The notes beneath the pieces were generated by a model that was not told the origin of the DNA, did not search any database, and worked only from the letters and a program-made list of their open reading frames with translations. A program made the position numbers and the translations under genes. Of a stretch of DNA of 64,000 nt, positions 23,730-34,157 are shown piece by piece; the stretch's first letter is position 1; every line of letters starts with the position of its first letter. The stretch comes from Scenedesmus sp. PABB004 (lineage: Eukaryota), in contig JABVCE010000038.1 in assembly GCA_014905635.1 (NCBI GenBank), positions 62,001 to 126,000 on the forward strand, given 5' to 3'.

Positions 23730-26700
23730 TCACGCGGCGCCGCCAGAGGCAGCAGAGGCGTAAAGCACCTGCAGCTCGCACTGCAGGCCCTTGCCCTGGG
23801 GCAGCTCCACCTCGAGCCGGCCGGTGTAGGGGTCATGCGCAAAGTTGTGGGGCGCGAGGTTGATCAGCACGCGCGCCGGCGCCGCGCTCGAATAGGCGAG
23901 GAAGCGGCCGCACCCGCGCAGCGCGAGCGCCGCGACCGCGAGCGGCGCGCCGCCGGCGCCGGCGCCGGCGCCGGCGCCGCCCGCGGGCGCGCCGCCCGGC
24001 GCGACGCTGCAGCTCAGCACCGCGCCGCCGCCGTTGAACATCTCGACCAGGCCCAGCGGCGCAAACGCGACGCCGCGCGCGCGGCGCAGCGGCGAGACCC
24101 AGACCAGGTCGCTGCCGGCGGGGTCGAGCGAGACCTCGAGGCCGTGCGTGCCGCCGCGCACGCTCAGCTCCTCCGTCCCGTAGCGGTACACCACAAACTC
24201 CTGCTCCGCCGCCTGCTCCTGCCCCTGCTCCGCCTCCGCCGCCGACGCCTGGGCCGGCGCGCCCGCGGCGGCGCCGCCGTCCACGCCCGCGCCTGCCGCC
24301 GCGCCGCCCAGCGCCCGCCGGCGTCCGCGCGCGGCGGCGCGGCGGCGCGGGGCGGCGGCGGCGCGCGGAAGGGCTCCACGTCGTGCGGCGCCACGGTCGC
24401 CGACAGCCGGCGGCCGCGCGTGTCGTGCTGGTGGAACTTGCGGCGCGTGCGGTCCCAGCTGCTGCCCTGCAGGTTGAACACGCCAACGATGCCCACCACG
24501 GCGTTGACGTTCCACACCTGCGCGCGCAGCGCCGCGCCCGGCGGCGCGCGCAACGCGCGTGGGCGGCGGCGCGGGCAGGCGCAGAGGCGCGCCGGGCCGG
24601 GCGCGAGCGCCGCGGCGCGCCCCCCGCGGGTCGCGCCGGCGGCGGCGCCTGGGCGGCGCGGGCGAGCCGCAGCGCACGCGCGCGCGCCGCAGCCACGCAC
24701 CTTGAGCAGGCTCGCGCCGTCGCGCAGCGGGTCGGTGAACAGGCAGTCGCGCGTGGGGCGGCCCGGCAGCGCCGCGCGCAGCACGCCGCCGTCGGGCAGC
24801 ACGAGGCGGCGCAGCAGCGCAAAGTCGTGCTGCCCGGGGCGGTCCGACACATACACGGCGCCGCCGCTCACGGCGCGGGCCATGCCGTGCAGCACGCCTG
24901 CGGCGGGGCAGCCGCAGCGGCGGCAGATGCGTCAGCACGCGGCGCCCGGCGGCGGCGCCAACGCCGCGGCGCGTGCCCCGCCGGCGCGCCCGCGCGCGCC
25001 GCCGTCGCCGCCCGCCGCCCCATCCATCCGCACCCGCGGGGTGTGCCGACTGGAACATGTCCCAGTCGGGCTGCACGAGCGCGCCCATGTAGAGGGAGTT
25101 GTAGGCGCACGCGCCGATGTGGGGCGTGGAGGAGGCGGGGTCGCGGGGGTAGTAGTCGTCGCTCACGCGCGCGACCGCGGTCGCGGCAAACCTGGGCGGC
25201 GGTGGGGAGGGTGTGAGTGAGTGAGCGAGTGAGTGAGTGGGTGAGTGGGTGAGTGGGTGAGTGAGCGAGTGGGGCGAATGGGGCGAGTGAGTGGGGCGAG
25301 TGCGGGAGGGAGGCGTGGCGCGCGTGGGGGCGGCGTGCCCGTGCGCGCGCGCGCGCCTGTAGAAGTTTTCGGTCGAGTGGCACATGCAGTTGATCGCGTG
25401 ATTGCCGGGGAAGTGCCCCGCGATGCTGCGCTCGAGCGCGGCCTGGAAGCGCCGCGCCGCGGCGGGGCCGCCGCCGAGCACGCTGCCGACGAGGCCCACG
25501 CCCGCCTGGCAGTCGACCTTTACGCCGTCGACGCCGCAGGACGCGAGGTAGCTGTGCATGCTGCTGTAGAGCGCGTCGGGGTTGGCCGCGATGCCCACGC
25601 CTGCGCATGCGTGTGTGGTCAGCGCGGCGCGCCGCGGCGGCGGCCGGGTGAGAGGGGGCGGGACGGGCGCCGTCGTGCGGCGCGCGCGCGCGCATCCGGA
25701 TGCAAGCGCAGCGCAGCGCAAGCAGCGTGCCGCGCGCCCGCACCCGCGAGCACGGCGGGGCTCCACATGAGGCTCGGCTCGACCTCCGCGATGCTGTCGG
25801 TGGGCTTGGGGAACACGAGCGTCGCGCCGCTCACGCCGCCGAGCGCGGGCGCGTCGGGCATGACGCCGCCCCAGTAGGCCGGCAGGCCGTGCCAGCAGTA
25901 CACATACCGCACGCCAAAGCTGCGGCGGCGCGGCGGGCGCGCGCGGCGGCGGCGCGGCGGGCGCGCGGCGGCGACACAGTGGGCGCGCGGCAGCGGCGCG
26001 GCGGGCGCGCGGCGGCGGCGCGGCGGGCGCGCGGCGCGGGGCGGCGGAGCACGCGCGCCGGGCGGGGGCGGACCGGCCCGCACGCGGCTGCGCCAGCTGC
26101 GCGCCACACCGCGCAGCTGTGGCGCGCGCGCACCGCTGCTTGATCGCCGCGACGACGGCGGCAAAGTCGGCGGGCGTGGACTCCCAGTCCTCCTCGGGCC
26201 CGGCGTCGAGGCGCGCAAACTTGGCGTTTGCCTCCACGCTCGTGAGGCGGCGCGTGAAGTCGGACGCGCTCGCGAAAAAGGTCAGCAGCGTGCCGCGCAG
26301 GAAGCCCTGCAGGCACGCGCGCGAGAGAGGAAGAGGGTGAGAGGGCGCGCGCGCGCGCGCGCGTGAGAGCGCGCAAGCGGGCGGCGCAGCACGGTGGCGC
26401 AGCACGGCGGCGGCGCCCGGCCGCCGCCGCCCGGCGCGCGCGCCGTGCCGCGCGCCGCGCGCGCCGCGCCGCACCTGCGCGACGGCCGCGAACGCGCGCG
26501 TGCGCAGGCTGTGCGGCGGCGCGGGCTCGATGACCCACTGATAGAACAGCAGGTAGCTCGCGGTCAGCAGCCCCGCCAGCGCGCCGGCGGCCTTCTGGGC
26601 CCAGCGGATGACGATGAACTGCTGCCGCGGCGTCGGCGCCGCCGCCGCGAGCGCGCGGCGCACCGCGGCCTTGCCGCCCGCGGCCGCGGCCTCGAGCGCC

Positions 26701-29700
26701 GCCTCCGCCTCGGCCGCGGCGTCGAGCAGCGGCGCGCGCGCGTCGGCGGCGGGGCTGCCGCGCTGCGCCGCCCAGTCGGGCGCGGAGCCGGCCGCGCCGT
26801 CGCCGTCGCCGGCGGCGCGGCGCGGCGCGGGGCGCGCCCGCGCCGCCGCCGCGGCGCCCCGCGCGGCGATCTCCGCCTCCTTGGCCGCGGCGGCCGCGTC
26901 GGCGGCGGCGTCCCAGGACGCCGCGGGCGGCGTGTGGTGGTGCGCGATGGCGCCCGTGTTGGCGACCGTGGGGAAGAGGTTGCGCACCTCCTGCTGCATC
27001 GCGGGGGACGCCTCGGCCAGGAGCTTGGCGTTCTCCTCGTAAAACGTGTCCTGCGAGCGTTTAAGGGGGGGGGGGGTGCACGGGGGCACAGAGTCACGGG
27101 CAGGGACGGGCGGCGGCCGGGCCGGAGGCGGGGGCACGCGCGCGGGGGTGGGGGCGGGTCGGCGCCGCGCGCGCGGCGGGGGCGGAGGCGGTGCGGCGCC
27201 GCCGCGGCTCGCGGTTGGCGGCGGCGCGCGGTGACGCCTCGCTGCCGCTCACAAGCCGCGGCGGCGCCGCCCGCCCTCAACCCCGGCCCCGGCCCCGCGG
27301 CGGCGCGCGCCTGCGTCTCCAGCACCATCTCGCGCGGGCCGTCGAGCAGCGCTCCCGCGCGCGTGCCCTCGAGCTCGCCGACCAGCTTGTCAGCGAGCAC
27401 CGCGGTCGGGGCCTTGCCGTACGGCGGGTCGATGTCGGTGAGCTGGGCGGGTTTAGGGAGGGTTGTGCAGGGTCGTGCGGGGTTCAGGGTTCGGGCCGGG
27501 GGCTCGGGCGGGTCAGCACTCGCGCCGCGCCGCGGGTCAGCCGCAGGTCAGCACTCGCGCCGCGGGTCAGCACTCGCGCCGCGGGTTTCGGGGTTGGGGG
27601 CGAGGGTGGGGCGAGGCGTGTGGCCGGGGCGGCGGCGCGCGCGGGCGGCCCGCGGGCTCGGTGCTGCGCTATACATATCTCGGCGCTGTGTACCTGCCAG
27701 CCGTCATCAATGATCAGGAGGTGGGGGTGCAGCCCGCCCGCCTGCAGGCTCGACAGGCCCTCCACGAGGCCGCGCGCGCTCACGGTCGAATAGAAGGCGT
27801 CCCAGGTGCACCTGCGACCCCGTGTGCGCGCGTGTGTGTGTAAGTGTGTGTGTGAGCGTGCGTGCGCGCGTGTGTGAGTGTGGAGGGGGGGGGCGGGGGG
27901 GGTGGCGGCGCGCGGTGTGGTGCGCGGCGCGACACACGGCGTGCGCACCAGCCGAAGCCGTCGAGGCTCGCCGGCAGCGCCTTGGCGGCGCGCGGCGCCG
28001 CGCCGCCGGAGAGCGCGGCGCCCGCGGCGACGCCGGCGTCGACGAGGTGGAACGGGTCGGTGCCGACGGCGAGCAGCAGCACGCCTGCGGCCGCGCGCGC
28101 GCGCGCGCGCGGTCGGGCGCCGGGGCGCCACAGGCCGGGGCGGCGGCGCCGGCGGCGCGGCGCCGGCGGCGGCGGCAGCGGGGCTCACTGTCGCACGACT
28201 CGCCCAGCTTGGAGTCGTCGCCGCTCTCGACGCGCATGACGACCTGCCCCGCGCGGTCGGCGCCCCAGGCCCTGCGCCGCGCGGCGCGGCGCGCGGTGGT
28301 TTAGCAAGCGAGACCCTGCTGCGTGGAGAACATGCCCCCCAGCACACGACTCGACAAAATCAACGGCAACGGCACGCGGCGGCGGCGCACGCGGCATCAG
28401 CAGCGGCGGCGAGCGAGCGCGTGCGCCGAGCCCCTGCCGCTGCGGCGCCAGGCCGATCGCGCCGCGCGCATCCCGGGACGACACGGGGGCAGCCTAGGGG
28501 CCCCTTGCCGCCCCCCCAGCGGGCGCGGGGCGGCCCGAGAGGATGCAGGGCCTCCCGGACGGCGGATCCGCGGCCAAGCGGCCACGCCTGGCCCCGCTCT
28601 CGCCGGCGGGCGGCATGGGCCACGCGCAGGGGTGAGCGCGGGGCCGCCAACCGCGCGCAGCGCGGCCCCAGGGCGCGAGGCAGCAGCCAACCGCAACACC
28701 ACGCACGCAGGCGAGACGGCCCCGACGACCTGGTGGCCTACATGGCCTCCCGCGGCGGCAGGGTGCGCGACGGCGCACCGCGCGGCCGCCGCGCCACGCC
28801 GCGGCGGGCAGCAGCGGCAGCAGCGCACACGCGTGCCACGCCAACCACGCGCCGCCACGCCGCCAACGCGCCACACCACAGATCCAGGAGCTCGAGGACG
28901 AGCTGGCGGCGCTGTGCGGCGCGCACGCGGCGGCGGCCGCGGCGGCCGAGGCGCGCGAGGGCGAGGTCGCGTCGCTGCGCGCGCAGCTGACCACCTGGCG
29001 CGCGGTCAAGGACGCCGAGGCAGCCAGCCTGAACAGCAGCAACGCGCAGCTCGCGGAGCAGCTGACGCGGGAGATCGCCCGCGCGCGCACGCTCGAGGGC
29101 CAGCTCGCGCGAGCGCAGGCCGACGGGGTGCGCGGCGCCCGCGCCGTGATGCACTTGTGCTCGACTAACTCTGGCGCCAGCACACACCAACGCCGCCGCA
29201 CCCCGCCCCCGACCGCGGCGCAGGGCCGGAGCAAGCTCGAGGCGGAGCAGCTGCGGGCGCAGCTGGCAGACGCGCTGGCGGGCGCCGCGGCGGCGGGCTC
29301 GTCCGCCGAGGGCAGCGTGCGGGAGCTCGGCCAGCAGCTCGCCGCGTGCCAGCGCGACGCGGACGAGGCGCGCCGCGCGGCGGCGCAGGCGGCCGCGCTG
29401 CAGGCGGAGCGGCTGCAAGCGGAACAGGACGCGCACGCGGTCGCGGCGCGGCAGCTGGCCGACGCGAAGCAGCAGCTCACGGCCGCGCTCGCGCGCGCCG
29501 CCGAGGCCGACGCGGCGGCGGCAGACGCGCAGGGGCGCGCGATCAAGGCGGAGATGCAGGCGGCGACCATGGCGAGCAGCGACGGCCAGGTGCTGCTGAA
29601 GACGCTGCAGGAGCAGCTCCGCGCGCAGGGCGAGGCGCTCGCGGCGGCGCGCGCGGGCGCGGCGCAGGCGGCTGCGCTGCCGGGCCTGCAGGCGGGGCTC

Positions 29701-32639
29701 GCAGAGGCGCAGCAGGAGCTGCGCGCCGCGAAGCGCAGCCTTGAGGAGGCCCAGCTCGGCGCGGCGCAGGCTGAGGGGCTGCGCAACGAGCTGGACCTCT
29801 GGCGCACCGCGTTCAAGGTGCGGGGTCCATGCGAGGCACGCGGCCGGCTGCTGGCCGCCGCCCCGCTGCGAGCGGCCTGGGTGACCGCGCGCCGCCCGCC
29901 CCGCCCCGCTGCCCCCGCCCCCGGCGCAGAGCGCGCTCGGGCTGGACCACCCGAGCCCGCAGGCGCTCGCGGCGCTGCAGAGCAAGCAGCAGCATGCGGA
30001 GAAGCAGCGCCACGACGCGCAGGTGGAGCTGTCGTCGCTGCGCTCGGAGTGCGCGGAGCTGCGCGCCGCGGCCGAGGCGGGCGAGGCGGCGCGCGCCACG
30101 CTCGAGGGCGAGCTGCACAAGGCGCAGCAGCAGCTGTCGCAGGCGCAGGTGTTTGTAAAGCTCTCGCAGAGCGAATGCGAGGGCCTCAAGCGCCTCGTCG
30201 CGCTGCTGGAGCAGGAGCAGGAGCGCCCCAGCGGCGGCGACGGCGCGGCCGGTGGCGGCGCCGACGGCGCGGCCGGCGGGGCCCCGAGCGCGGCGGACGC
30301 CGCCAAGGCCGCGGGCCTGCAGGCGCTGGTGGAGCAGCTGCAGGCGGCGCAGGGCGAGCTGCAGGCGCAGCTCGCGGCCGCGACCGAGGCCGAGGCGGCG
30401 GCCAAGGCGGGCGCGGCAGAGGCGGCGGCGGCGCTGAAAAAGCAGGAGCGCGAGCTGGACGAGCTCGCCGCGACCGTCGACGCGCTGCAGGCGCAGCTGT
30501 CGGGCGGGGAGTACGACCCCACGCGCACGCGCGTGCTGCACCTCGTGCACAACCCCGCGGCCGAGCTGGAGCGGCTGCAGGACAAGGCCGACATTGAGCG
30601 CCTGCGAGAGGAAAATGCCGCGCTGCGCGGCGCGCTCGCGCGCGCGAGCGCGAGCGCGGCGGGCGCCGCCGCCGGCGCGGCGGGCGCCGCGGGCGGGGGC
30701 GCGTCCGCACCCGACGCCGCGCCGGCGGCGGGGGCGGCGGCGCCGGGCGCCGCGGCGGGCGGCGGCGCGCCCGACGCGGACGACCCCCTCGTCGCCGCCG
30801 CGGTCGCGGCGGCCGAGGCCAAGCTGCTCACGCGCAAGCTCGCGGCGGCGGAGAAGCAGGTGCGGCCGGCCGGACGCCCACCCGGCGCCGCCACACGGCC
30901 CCGCCGTCGCTGCGACCGCTGCCCGAGCGCCGCCATCCGCCCGCCCACCGCCCGCCCGCCCGCCGCCGCCGCCGCGGCCAGGTCAGCGCGCTCAAGGACG
31001 TCTTCAAGCAGCGCGTCAAGGCACTGCGCGAGGCCTGCCGGTGCGCGCCCGCCCGGCAAGCGCCTCAGGAAAAAAAAACACGCAACGCTCGGCACCAACT
31101 CAACGCACACTCACACTCAACCCGCACCGCCCTGCCGGCCTGCTGCCCTGAACCCTGCCGCCGCCCCGCAGCGCGCTGTTTGGGTACCGCATGGACATGG
31201 TCAGCGACCCCTGGCCCGACGTCGGCCGCGCGCCGACGACCTACACGCTCAGCAGCGTGCTCGGCCCCAAGGACGACGTGCTCATGTTCAGGTGAGGCGC
31301 ACCGCCGCGCTGCCGGCGCGTGCTGTGCCGTGCGCCGCCGCTGCCGGCGCGCGCTGTGCTGTGCGCCGCCGCCTGCGCGCCCACGCGCCCACGCGCCCAC
31401 GCGCCCCGCCGCCCGCCTGTGTCCCTTCCTCGTAGGTACCACCCCGACGCGGAGCCCGCGTACAGCCTGCTCAAGACGCCGCTGAGCGCGGCGCTTGCGC
31501 AGGAGGTGGAGGTGTTTGTGACCAACTTTGGCTCCATCCCCGCCTTCACCGCCAACCGCACCGTCACGCTCTTCCAGCAGGCGACGAGCTCGGGGCCCGC
31601 GTGAGCGAGCGCGGCGCGCGCGGCGCGTTGGCAACTGCGCTGGCAACTGCGCTGGCAACTGCGCTGGTAACTGCCCGGCGACGCCGGCCGCGACCGCTCA
31701 AGGAGGACGAGATCGCGCGGCTGGGCGCCGCGCGCGGCACGCGCCCCCCGCGGCGGCGCGCCGACACAACACGCAGCAACGACAGCACACACAGACAAAC
31801 CAACGACGCAACCCGCCGCGCGCGGCGCGCAGCCCCCGGCCGGCCCACCTGTTGGGCCGCAGCGTGGCCCGGAAGTCTCCATCGATGAGGGGCAGGACGA
31901 GGCCGTACGCCTGCTCGCCGCCGGCGCCGGCCTCGAGCTCCAGCAGCAGGAACTGTGTCTCCGGCGGCAGCGCACCGCCGCTGCTGCCCCACTCGGGCGT
32001 CATCCACCAGAGCTTGTTGCGCGCGCACGCGAGGAAGCGCGTGAACTTGAGCTGCGCGCGCGCGCGCAGACGCGGACGCGGCGGGAGGGCGGTGAGCCCG
32101 CGGGCGGGCGGCGCTGCACGGCTCGCAGCGCAGAGCGCGACGCGCGCCCGCCGCCGGCTCGCGCAGCTGCGCCGGCGCCGCACCTGGCCCAGGACCACGT
32201 CCCAGCTCGCCGCGGGGCCCTGCTCGCTGCTCGCGCCAAACACGAGCGCCCCGTGCCGCGACTCGCGCGGGTTGAGCGAGAGGCGGGCGCTCGCGCGCTC
32301 CAGCAGCACGCGCCCGCACGCGTCGCGCACGGCGTCGCCGTCGAGCTGCAGCGGCACAATGCTGGGGTGGTCCAGGCTCGGCACGCCGCCGCCGGGCGGC
32401 GCCGCGGCGCTGCCGGTCATGCCTGAGGAGCCTCGCTGCTGCTGCTGCTGCTGCTGCGGCGGCTGCGGCCAGCCGCCCGCCTGCGCGCGCTGCAGCAGCG
32501 CCGCCTGGCTGCCGGCGCCCGAGTCCGACGGCGGCCCTGCGCCGCGGCGGCGGCGGCAGCGGCGGCGGCGCGCGCGCGTCGGCCGGGCGCGCCCGGCGCC
32601 TGCGATCGCCGCCGCCGCGGCGGCGCGGGCGCGCAGCAT
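23730..32639 (-). CDS. Raffinose synthase / seed-imbibition alkaline alpha-galactosidase (GH36) with a 3.58 kb intron
   Basis: KLWWMTP..G..LPPETQFLLLE, FRATL, VESGD, FGWCTWDAFY, LIIDDGWQ, YVYCWHGLPAYWGG, GVDGVKVDCQ, CMCH, RVSDDYYP, PDWDMFQS, VYVSDRPG, RPTRDCLFTDP and FAPLGLVEMFNGGGAV. The start codon is tentative. Confidence 0.92.
25211..25295. repeat. (GAGT/GGGT)n tetranucleotide microsatellite in a GH36 intron
   Basis: gtgagtgagtgagcgagtgagtgagtgggtgag... Confidence 0.8.
28742..31604 (+). CDS. MAD1: Mitotic spindle checkpoint protein MAD1, nested antisense in the GH36 intron
   Basis: Long coiled coil, GEYDPTRTRVLHLVHNP (MAD2-interaction motif), LKDVFK..REAC..LFGYRMD and C-terminal SIPAFTA..TLF. 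Confidence 0.88.
31626..31674. repeat. 12 bp tandem repeat (gcgctggcaact) x~4 in the MAD1 3' region
   Basis: Visible directly. The last copy carries GGTAA. Confidence 0.75.
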
Positions 32640-34157
32640 GCGTGCGAGCACTGCGACCGCGCGTGCGCTCGGCGCGGCCGCGCACCTTGCTCAACGCCGG
32701 CCACGCGGCGCGTCGTCGCCGAGGCCAGGACCCGGGGCAGCCTGCCCGGGGGCGGCGCGGGGAGCCGGCGCGGCGCCGCGGCGCCGAGCGGCGCGCGCCT
32801 GCGCAGCAGCGGCAGCGGCCGCCGGCGCCGCGTCAGCGCGGCGCGGCGCGGCGCCGGCGGCTCGCGGCGCGGGCCCAGGATCGCAGCGAGCGCGCAGGGC
32901 CGCCCGCTGCGCAATGCCGCGGCCCGCCAGCGGCGCCGCGCGCGACGGCAGGGCGTGCCGTCGCACGCGCGGGCGGCGAGCGGGCGTTAGGGCCCCCACC
33001 TGGCTCGCAGCCCGAGCGAGGCGCTCCGGGTGCTGATGAGGGCGGTCAGGCTGCTGGCGGAGCGGCACGGAGCGGCTGCTGCTCGCGCCAGCTGCATGCC
33101 GGGTGGCCGCCCGCCCTGCAGGCCACGCGCCCTGCAGGTACAGCGCCACCGGGTGCGCGCCGATCGATCCAACTGCGCGCTGGCACACGGCGCCAGGCGG
33201 CGAGAGGGGGCGGGCCAGAAAGCGTGGGCCACGACAGCGGGCGCGACGCAGGCGCCGCCCTGGTGCTGCGGGAGGCGGCCCTAACTGTGGGCAGAGTGGG
33301 CGCGCCGGCGCCGCCACCGCAGCTGCGCGGCCGCGCGGGCGCCGCGCCGCGCCGCTGCACCGCCGCTGCTCACGCGCGCGCCGCCGGGCCGCTGAACTGC
33401 CGGCAGGGCACGTGCTGGCGCAATTGACGGTGATGGGAGGCCGTGGGCGGGTGGCGGCGCGCACACGAAGCCGCACGCTCGCCGCGCGCGCTCGACGTCG
33501 CCGCCGCAACCCGCGCCCGCGCGCACGGTCGGGCGTCCGGCGAGCCGATCGCGTTCGATGTTGCGGCTCGCGTTCGTTGCGTGGTGAGCTCCGCAGACCC
33601 TGCGCGGTCTCGCGTCAGCGGCAGCTCGGTCGGCTCCCGCGACGCCCCGCGCTGTGCCTCGCCCGCCCCCCAGCGCGCCCGCGGGCCGGCCATTCATGAA
33701 TCCCGTGAGCTCCTCACGACCACGAGGCACGATGCGCCAGCAGGCGGCCAGCCCGTAGACGCGGCCGGCAGCAGCCAGCCGCGCCCAGCCCGCCACCCCG
33801 CCCCGCGCGCAGCGGGCCGGAAATCGCACACGCCGGGGCGCGTGAGCATCTTCGACCCTCTCACTCAGCAGTCAGCGACTCGCGGGGCGCATCAGGTCCG
33901 GCAGCGCGCGCGAGCGCGGCGCTTGCCGCGCGCGCCCGCCCCGCGCGCGCGGGGCGCCCGGCGGCCCGGCAGCGCGCCTGCGGGGTGCCAGGAGCCTCAA
34001 CAGCTCGGGCCGAGCTCGGCGCGTCGCGGCGTGGCCCCGGTTGGCCCCGGCAGCAGCAGCCAGCGCCCCCGCTGCTGGCCGCGGCCACGCGCCCACGCGC
34101 CCACGCGCTCACGCGCCCGCGCGCCGCCCGCGCCGCCGCCGGCCTCCAGCAGGCCAC

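Follow-up and report, generated by a model that had tools for sequence, protein, structure and literature searches.

The locus considered here raises the question of whether a gene for the mitotic checkpoint protein MAD1 lies, complete and in antisense orientation, within a single intron of a raffinose synthase gene. It is located in a stretch of 64,000 nucleotides of Scenedesmus sp. PABB004 (contig JABVCE010000038.1, positions 62,001 to 126,000 of the forward strand), which is referred to as the window and whose first letter is position 1 in all coordinates given below. On the minus strand, two groups of exons with similarity to glycoside hydrolase family 36 (GH36) are separated by a gap, and MAD1-like exons occupy the plus strand in between. 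Splice geometry, homology and the recurrence of the layout in other algae suggest that this is very probably a genuine pair: a GH36 host of approximately 14 exons and 1089 amino acids would contain a complete, independently transcribed antisense MAD1 gene in its phase-2 second intron of 3577 nt.

All gene models were built on homology and splice signals. For the host, the decisive element is the junction that bridges the gap. On the minus strand, the upstream exon ends at 31849 and is followed by a GT at 31848-31847 (CAG/GTGGGC); the acceptor AG is found at 28273-28272 (GCGCAG/G) and the downstream exon starts at 28271. The join of 31849 and 28271 creates an Arg codon (AG/G) and keeps the reading frame. 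The flanking conserved blocks allow 15 GT/GC-AG joins that stay in frame and are free of stops, and this pair ranked first among them by a simple splice score. Six algal raffinose synthases were colinear over the locus in tblastn searches, and no residues were lost at the gap. For example, residues 87-266 of protein P0001 matched positions 32531-31854 and its residues 287-342 matched positions 28112-27945. The 27-residue peptide of exon 3, which gave no Pfam match when scanned alone, is in register with Coccomyxa P0019 and 11 further homologues. The initial annotation had placed a phase-matched GT-AG intron with a split Arg codon between two GH36 halves (31849-32639 and 23730-28271); splice geometry and homologue colinearity agree on it.

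Judged by homology, the minus-strand gene is a GH36 member of the raffinose synthase/seed imbibition protein type. The spliced model comprises 14 exons and 3270 nt, and encodes 1089 residues without an internal stop. The translation of 32420-31851 matched positions 65-135 of the Pfam profile PF05691 (Raffinose_syn) with 54.1 bits, and the exon at 27810-27694 matched positions 204-242 with 51.4 bits (cut-off 20). A search with the N-terminal exon yielded 26 proteins, 25 of which carry PF05691; the matches are mostly green-algal and stem from Volvox, Astrephomene, Pleodorina, Bryopsis, Ulva, Coccomyxa and Tetraselmis. Single blastp segment pairs covered residues 111-1047 of the model in the comparison with P0004 (50%) and residues 107-1081 in that with P0003 (47%). 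Full-length identities to algal family members amount to 45-52%, and proteins from Tetradesmus and Hariotina reach 67-84%. The model contains the sequences DGVKVD and RVSDDYY at near-invariant columns of exon alignment A2, in which host exon 2 was aligned with nine homologues; we take the K-V-D and S-D-D blocks to be catalytic in the GH36 family. The host thus resembles the known raffinose synthase/seed imbibition proteins (GH36, PF05691) in scoring above the Pfam cut-off and in being colinear over its full length. It differs from them in being the long form of algae, in which about 200 residues rich in Ala and Gly are inserted between the DDGWQ block and the catalytic barrel.

The plus-strand gene between the GH36 halves is MAD1, as assigned from its predicted protein. 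An exhaustive search with the frame 29885-30871 (plus strand), which holds exon 5, returned 94 proteins at E<=0.001, and all 14 of the scanned exon-5 matches carry PF05557 above the cut-off. When single exons of the window were scanned with the same profile (cut-off 30), exon 5 scored 27.1 bits (positions 416-521) and the last exon 15.3 bits (positions 620-661). Full-length MAD1 homologues were colinear over approximately 28.7-31.6 kb in tblastn, and their C-termini end at 31586-31592. In blastp, residues 6-748 of the model were aligned with P0057, residues 10-747 with P0109 and residues 32-748 with P0122; the alignment with P0123 also begins at residue 10. The model is 61% identical over 727 columns to P0122, the mitotic checkpoint protein of Scenedesmus sp. 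NREL 46B-D3, and approximately 60% identical to the protein of Tetradesmus obliquus, which places the window near the Sphaeropleales. The window protein shares with MAD1 homologues the coiled-coil body, the [KR]VLH..NP motif and the C-terminal FGY...IPAFTAN domain. RVLHLVHNP and FGY...IPAFTAN align to matching columns in 10 homologues, the former as a predicted motif of the Mad2-interaction (Mad2-binding-like) type. The model differs from its homologues just before the C-terminal domain, where it has A-L-K and most of them have R-L/Y-K/Q. The Ala in question lies three codons past the modelled acceptor (exon 6 start, 30982), so that either a substitution or an acceptor a few bases off may be seen here.

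The coding sequence of MAD1 (28543-31604) lies wholly inside the host intron (28272-31848), and its own introns are of the GT-AG type and 79-144 nt long. That a multi-exon MAD1 fills most of the intron was correctly noted in the initial annotation; it occupies 3062 of 3577 nt, or 86%. The distance of about 245 bp given there between the MAD1 stop and the host donor corresponds to 244 nt (TGA at 31602-31604). The start codon, which had been set about 470 bp from the host acceptor, has to be moved. ATG 28742 is an internal Met, and two exons further upstream (28543-28631 and 28711-28762) are backed by homology, which puts the start at ATG 28543, 271 nt from the acceptor. The donor of the first exon reads GGG/GTGAGC. 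The upstream exons restore the N-terminal motif K-R-x-R, which was aligned in six of ten homologues, and the block D-L-x-x-Y-x-x-x-R, which was aligned in four of them.

In order to assess the layout beyond the window, metagenome contigs were scanned with alignment A2. The scan confirmed 206 stretches, of which the best 80 were retained. MAD1 was sought in these 80 loci by tblastn, using the MAD1 model and 14 homologues as queries. It was found in 27 loci, always directly downstream of host exon 2 and always antisense to the host (27 antisense, 0 sense). In 14 of these nested loci the contig continues past MAD1 into the next host exons, which are reached 2143-4964 nt after exon 2; it ends before that point in the other 13. 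The nested loci cover 46-80% G+C and form about eleven groups by exon-2 sequence. A comparison of the intron position in related host genes, as proposed in the initial annotation, located the donor AG/GT at the same Arg codon and in the same phase in the nested loci. These results bear on the possibility that an assembly artefact or a recent rearrangement placed the MAD1 segment between the host halves. The sole feature in favour of such an event is the length of the intron, which exceeds the next longest intron of the gene 13-fold (the other 12 modelled host introns measure 104-275 nt). The splice sites are intact and phase-matched, and the identical layout exists in 27 independent contigs of many samples and, as deduced from adjacent locus tags, in two named genomes. 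A recurrence in 27 independent contigs excludes a misassembly and is more than chance; the probability of an artefact is therefore practically negligible.

The remaining 53 loci are of different kinds. In 36 of them the host reading frame is uninterrupted at the intron site. Eight loci (L010, L022, L023, L025, L026, L029, L030 and L035) have a short intron near the site, with a gap of 150-255 nt and no MAD1 within flanks of up to 10 kb. Among the named proteins tried, these eight are nearest to Coccomyxa elongata (L035 is 78% identical); either MAD1 has left their intron, or they are paralogues. Two loci (L065 and L068) have another structure, and seven with less than 600 nt downstream were left unscored.

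Two named genomes show the same neighbourhood. In Tetradesmus obliquus, the tags and accessions of host and MAD1 follow directly on each other in two assemblies (OEZ85_006012/006013 and OEZ86_013807/013808). In Astrephomene the tags are nearly consecutive: the host Agub_g12493, whose model covers both halves, and the MAD1 fragment Agub_g12495 are each located on an 880,306-bp contig. Tag adjacency could be checked for Tetradesmus and Astrephomene only, where the names of both genes surfaced; a MAD1 tag and no host tag was obtained for Chlamydomonas euryale, Sanguina, Symbiochloris, Micromonas and Monoraphidium, and a host tag and no MAD1 tag for Volvox, Pleodorina, Bryopsis, Ulva and Coccomyxa elongata. 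Locus L003 shows 66-79% identity with host proteins from Volvox and 77% with the MAD1 fragment from Astrephomene; MAD1 of Trebouxia sp. C0005 matches L013-L019 at 78-92% identity. Tags and locus similarities together indicate that Sphaeropleales-like, Volvocales-like and Trebouxia-like algae all have the layout.

A quick maximum-likelihood tree of the host gene was calculated from 40 distinct rows, which included 20 rows of non-nested loci. All ten nested rows fall into one 20-row clade (Shimodaira-Hasegawa-like approximate likelihood ratio test, SH-aLRT, 93; not starred), which also takes in Volvocales, Ulva, Bryopsis and Coccomyxa elongata. The 36 uninterrupted loci correspond to 16 distinct rows, 15 of which lie outside this clade and one (L038) inside. 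The rows closest to the window are L005 and L007 (69% identity), both nested. The label nested or non-nested changes at least three times on the tree; well-supported branches alone force only one change. The economical interpretation is that the layout arose once, before Chlorophyceae and Trebouxiophyceae separated, and that losses or a divergence of paralogues followed. That one gene was inserted several times into the same intron, and each time in the same orientation, is very unlikely. Chlorophycean (Sphaeropleales, Volvocales) and trebouxiophycean algae would then have inherited the layout from a shared ancestor.

Are the two GH36 parts still expressed as one gene? The substitution pattern of exon 2 is informative in this respect. 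Nonsynonymous and synonymous rates (dN/dS) in five clean pairs of nested lineages are 0.007/0.162, 0/0.14, 0.051/0.729, 0.061/0.674 and 0.096/0.518, which corresponds to ratios of 0.04, 0, 0.07, 0.09 and 0.19. The downstream exons of L014/L017 gave a similar value (0.07), and dN and dS between the window and L005 are 0.226 and 0.633. Mis-mapping or saturation led to the exclusion of L045/L046, of the downstream blocks of L033/L037 and L027/L037, and of L008/L013 (dS saturated). The five clean pairs indicate purifying selection on host exon 2 of the nested lineages. Furthermore, the proteins P0015 (1152 amino acids on 4240 nt), P0005 and P0009 stem from contigs too short to hold introns, and match nested loci on either side of the MAD1 gap with contiguous residue numbers. 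Residues 94-159 and 159-250 of P0015 flank 4.07 kb in L019; residues 92-157 and 158-241 of P0005 flank 4.95 kb in L006.

Several observations weigh against a continuous host gene and its proposed history. Four host junctions are tentative, namely those at exons 6/7, 10/11 (GC donor) and 13/14. The contigs of P0015, P0005 and P0009 were taken as transcripts by their length only, and the three proteins are 70-80% identical relatives from organisms other than those of the loci. The support of the host-gene tree at the relevant node is moderate (SH-aLRT 93, quick search), and the metagenome contigs were assigned to lineages by their resemblance to a small number of named proteins. Finally, a number of public models break at the intron. 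Three from T. obliquus (P0128, P0131 and P0133) and one from Hariotina reticulata (P0127) begin at exon 3, at residues 217-220 of the host model from the window; P0126, a protein of a transcript-like contig from a close relative (75-78% identical), begins at a Met within exon 3; and the Apatococcus fuscideae model P0020 (WJX84_008039) ends where exon 2 ends, at model residue 220.

These breaks speak for a split gene, in which exons 1 and 2 would now constitute a small gene of their own or a remnant in decay, and a promoter within the intron would drive the enzyme from a start at or near exon 3. The window itself has a Met at model residue 232. This Met is not conserved, being replaced by Leu in T. 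obliquus, Hariotina and nine of 11 aligned homologues. The T. obliquus starts lie upstream of the acceptor, and the corresponding read-through frame of the window offers no ATG before the upstream stop. Purifying selection on exon 2 and the exact donor at the same codon are likewise at odds with a remnant. The break falls at position 135 of 750 of the PF05691 profile, which is within the domain rather than at its border, and the models of Astrephomene, Volvox, Bryopsis, Ulva and Coccomyxa hold both parts, as do the transcript-like contigs. A separation of the two parts is thus very improbable. Programs for gene prediction often cannot span an intron with another gene inside. The breaks of the public models at exon 2/3 are read as prediction failures caused by the nested gene. 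Under the preferred interpretation of one continuous host, exons 2 and 3 would be joined in the mRNA of Scenedesmus sp. PABB004.

For this host, the pre-mRNA would be transcribed through MAD1 in antisense, and the entire MAD1 unit would be removed as an ordinary spliceosomal intron. With 44-294 nt between the MAD1 stop and the host donor in the nested loci, MAD1 appears as a self-contained unit that is tightly packed against host exon 2. TGTAA is the poly(A) signal of green algae. In 19 of the 27 nested loci it occurs 3-185 nt past the MAD1 stop and still within the host intron; in two loci the nearest copy lies outside the intron, in five (high-GC) there is none, and one was not evaluated. 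The spacer 31605-31848 of the window contains no TGTAA. Host and MAD1 presumably possess separate promoters and terminators. At 31625-31674, 21 nt past the MAD1 stop, lies a tandem repeat with a 12-nt unit, GCGCTGGCAACT (4.2 copies, 94% matches).

On the opposite side of MAD1, two AACGG cores were found at 28362 and 28368 (plus strand), 6 nt apart and about 175 nt upstream of ATG 28543, in the sole A-rich patch upstream of the start. In plants, AACGG forms the core of G2/M-phase promoter elements, and the pair may be a candidate cell-cycle promoter element. The pentamer occurs 38 times on both strands of the whole 64-kb window (18 + 20). Across the loci, 21 copies were observed on both strands and 9.9 expected, a weak excess in redundant loci, and seven of 15 regions lack AACGG on the MAD1 strand. 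Trebouxia-like loci and those of the L033/L037 type have one to three copies on the MAD1 strand within the last 700 nt of the intron.

How has the layout been retained for so long? The initial annotation had suggested that transcriptional interference could couple sugar/stress metabolism and cell-cycle expression or make them mutually exclusive. In an extended form of this idea, convergent transcription, either of the host through MAD1 or of MAD1 against the host, would cause interference or antisense pairing, raffinose-family sugar metabolism and checkpoint/cell-cycle expression would become exclusive or coordinated, and selection on this coupling would explain the conservation. The depth of conservation and the invariant orientation (27/27) are compatible with it, as are the tight packing, with 44-294 nt in the loci and 244 nt in the window, and the position of the AACGG pair about 175 nt from the MAD1 start in view of 38 occurrences per 64 kb. 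An interplay between host and nested genes is reported for animals, with opposite-strand pairs in mammals and C. elegans as examples (PMC11694760, PMC12274878, PMC13309782). The eight host-family loci with a short intron and no MAD1 argue in the opposite direction, since three of their four distinct rows sit among nested rows; nesting thus appears dispensable, unless these loci are paralogues. The AACGG excess is weak and redundant, and entrapment predicts the conservation equally well. A selected coupling is for these reasons considered unlikely. It is quite unlikely that selection has held the nesting since before the Chlorophyceae/Trebouxiophyceae split owing to a gating of one gene by transcription of the other. 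If such gating were true, host transcription in non-dividing or stressed cells would override and silence MAD1, or else expression of MAD1 at division would cause the host transcript to be aborted or mis-spliced. The locus would then constitute a hard-wired switch between carbohydrate/stress metabolism and mitosis.

Neutral retention is the most likely explanation. The layout would be kept by structural entrapment, because un-nesting without breaking one of the genes would be hard, and any regulatory cross-talk would be secondary. This reading is preferred because some loci lack MAD1 and because nested pairs generally persist by entrapment.

The coordinates of all modelled features are compiled in the following table.

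Table 1. Features of the nested locus, in window coordinates.
Feature	Position	Strand	Basis or remark
Host exon 1	32639 (or ATG 32420) to 32184	minus	Pfam, tblastn; choice of start ATG left between two
Host intron 1	32183-32052, 132 nt	minus	junction enumeration
Host exon 2	32051-31849	minus	Pfam PF05691, tblastn colinearity
Host intron 2	31848-28272, 3577 nt, phase 2, CAG/GTGGGC ... GCGCAG/G	minus	holds entire MAD1 gene on opposite strand
Host exon 3	28271-28189	minus	junction enumeration from coordinates
Host exon 4	28084-27949	minus	junction enumeration from coordinates
Host exon 5	27811-27694	minus	junction enumeration; Pfam
Host exon 6	27442-27326, 3' end tentative	minus	junction enumeration
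Host exon 7	27050-26475	minus	junction enumeration
Host exon 8	26306-26134	minus	junction enumeration
Host exon 9	25919-25744	minus	junction enumeration
Host exon 10	25600-25357, GC donor, tentative	minus	junction enumeration
Host exon 11	25191-25034	minus	junction enumeration
Host exon 12	24897-24701	minus	junction enumeration
Host exon 13	24517-24380, tentative	minus	junction enumeration
Host exon 14	24224-23730, 5' end tentative, stop 23732-23730	minus	junction enumeration
MAD1 gene	28543-31604, 8 exons, 752 aa, TGA 31602-31604	plus	homology, junction enumeration
MAD1 exons 1-4	28543-28631, 28711-28762, 28882-29127, 29224-29817	plus	junction enumeration, homologues
MAD1 exons 5-8	29930-30859, 30982-31040, 31172-31291, 31436-31604	plus	junction enumeration, homologues
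Spacer, host acceptor to MAD1 start	28272-28542, 271 nt	plus	presumed MAD1 promoter and 5' UTR; 3' end of host intron
Spacer, MAD1 stop to host donor	31605-31848, 244 nt	plus	presumed MAD1 3' UTR and terminator

The host intron at 25356-25192 (minus strand) reads ACAG/GCGCGC ... GCCCAG/G. Its GC donor provides the only frame-keeping join of the STENFY block to the SDDYY block, and a GC-AG intron and a base error are the two explanations considered for this site. CACTCA-type repeats are abundant in the intron.

The composition of the region governs how open reading frames can be used. The G+C content is approximately 73-87% all across 20-36 kb of the window, and at about 80% G+C all six frames contain stretches of hundreds of codons that lack a stop. 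The length of an open reading frame was for this reason rejected as evidence for a gene; open frames alone are uninformative, because every frame holds long open stretches at such G+C. One stop-free frame of 1172 codons runs through several host introns (minus strand, 23733-27248). Low-complexity proteins rich in Ala, Gly and Arg gave rise to spurious tblastn matches throughout the window. A scan of 27500-33000 with Rfam yielded no match at the gathering score.

The arrangement has practical consequences. It reveals a recurrent annotation error, in that the raffinose synthase models of Tetradesmus obliquus, Hariotina and Apatococcus break exactly at the MAD1-bearing intron. About 220 N-terminal residues are lost from the models of Tetradesmus obliquus and Hariotina, and that of Apatococcus stops at this point, in a fusion with an adjacent gene. 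The four models from T. obliquus and Hariotina that start at exon 3 carry a short non-homologous leader; the fusion partner in P0020 comprises RanBD1/NUP50 domains. The presence or absence of MAD1 in the intron is a rare genomic change and a possible phylogenetic marker within core chlorophytes. In addition, the pair could serve as a small, naturally occurring system for experiments on transcriptional interference and on how an intron is defined across an active gene.

Nested genes in themselves are a familiar phenomenon, and TIMP genes inside synapsin introns are old and conserved examples. In green algae, whose introns are short, nested genes have hardly been described. Neither a MAD1/raffinose synthase pair nor conserved nested genes of green algae were reported in the open-access full texts and bioRxiv preprints searched. 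What is new is an unusually old and deeply conserved example from green algae, and no new kind of mechanism. The algal pair resembles the host/nested pairs of animals in that a complete coding gene with exons of its own resides in one intron of an opposite-strand host and has been retained for a long time. It differs from them in its setting, since it occurs in small genomes with short introns and the nested gene fills 86% of the intron, leaving spacers of 244 and 271 nt. In further contrast to the animal pairs, the nested gene of the algae is itself multi-exonic and is a core gene of the cell cycle.

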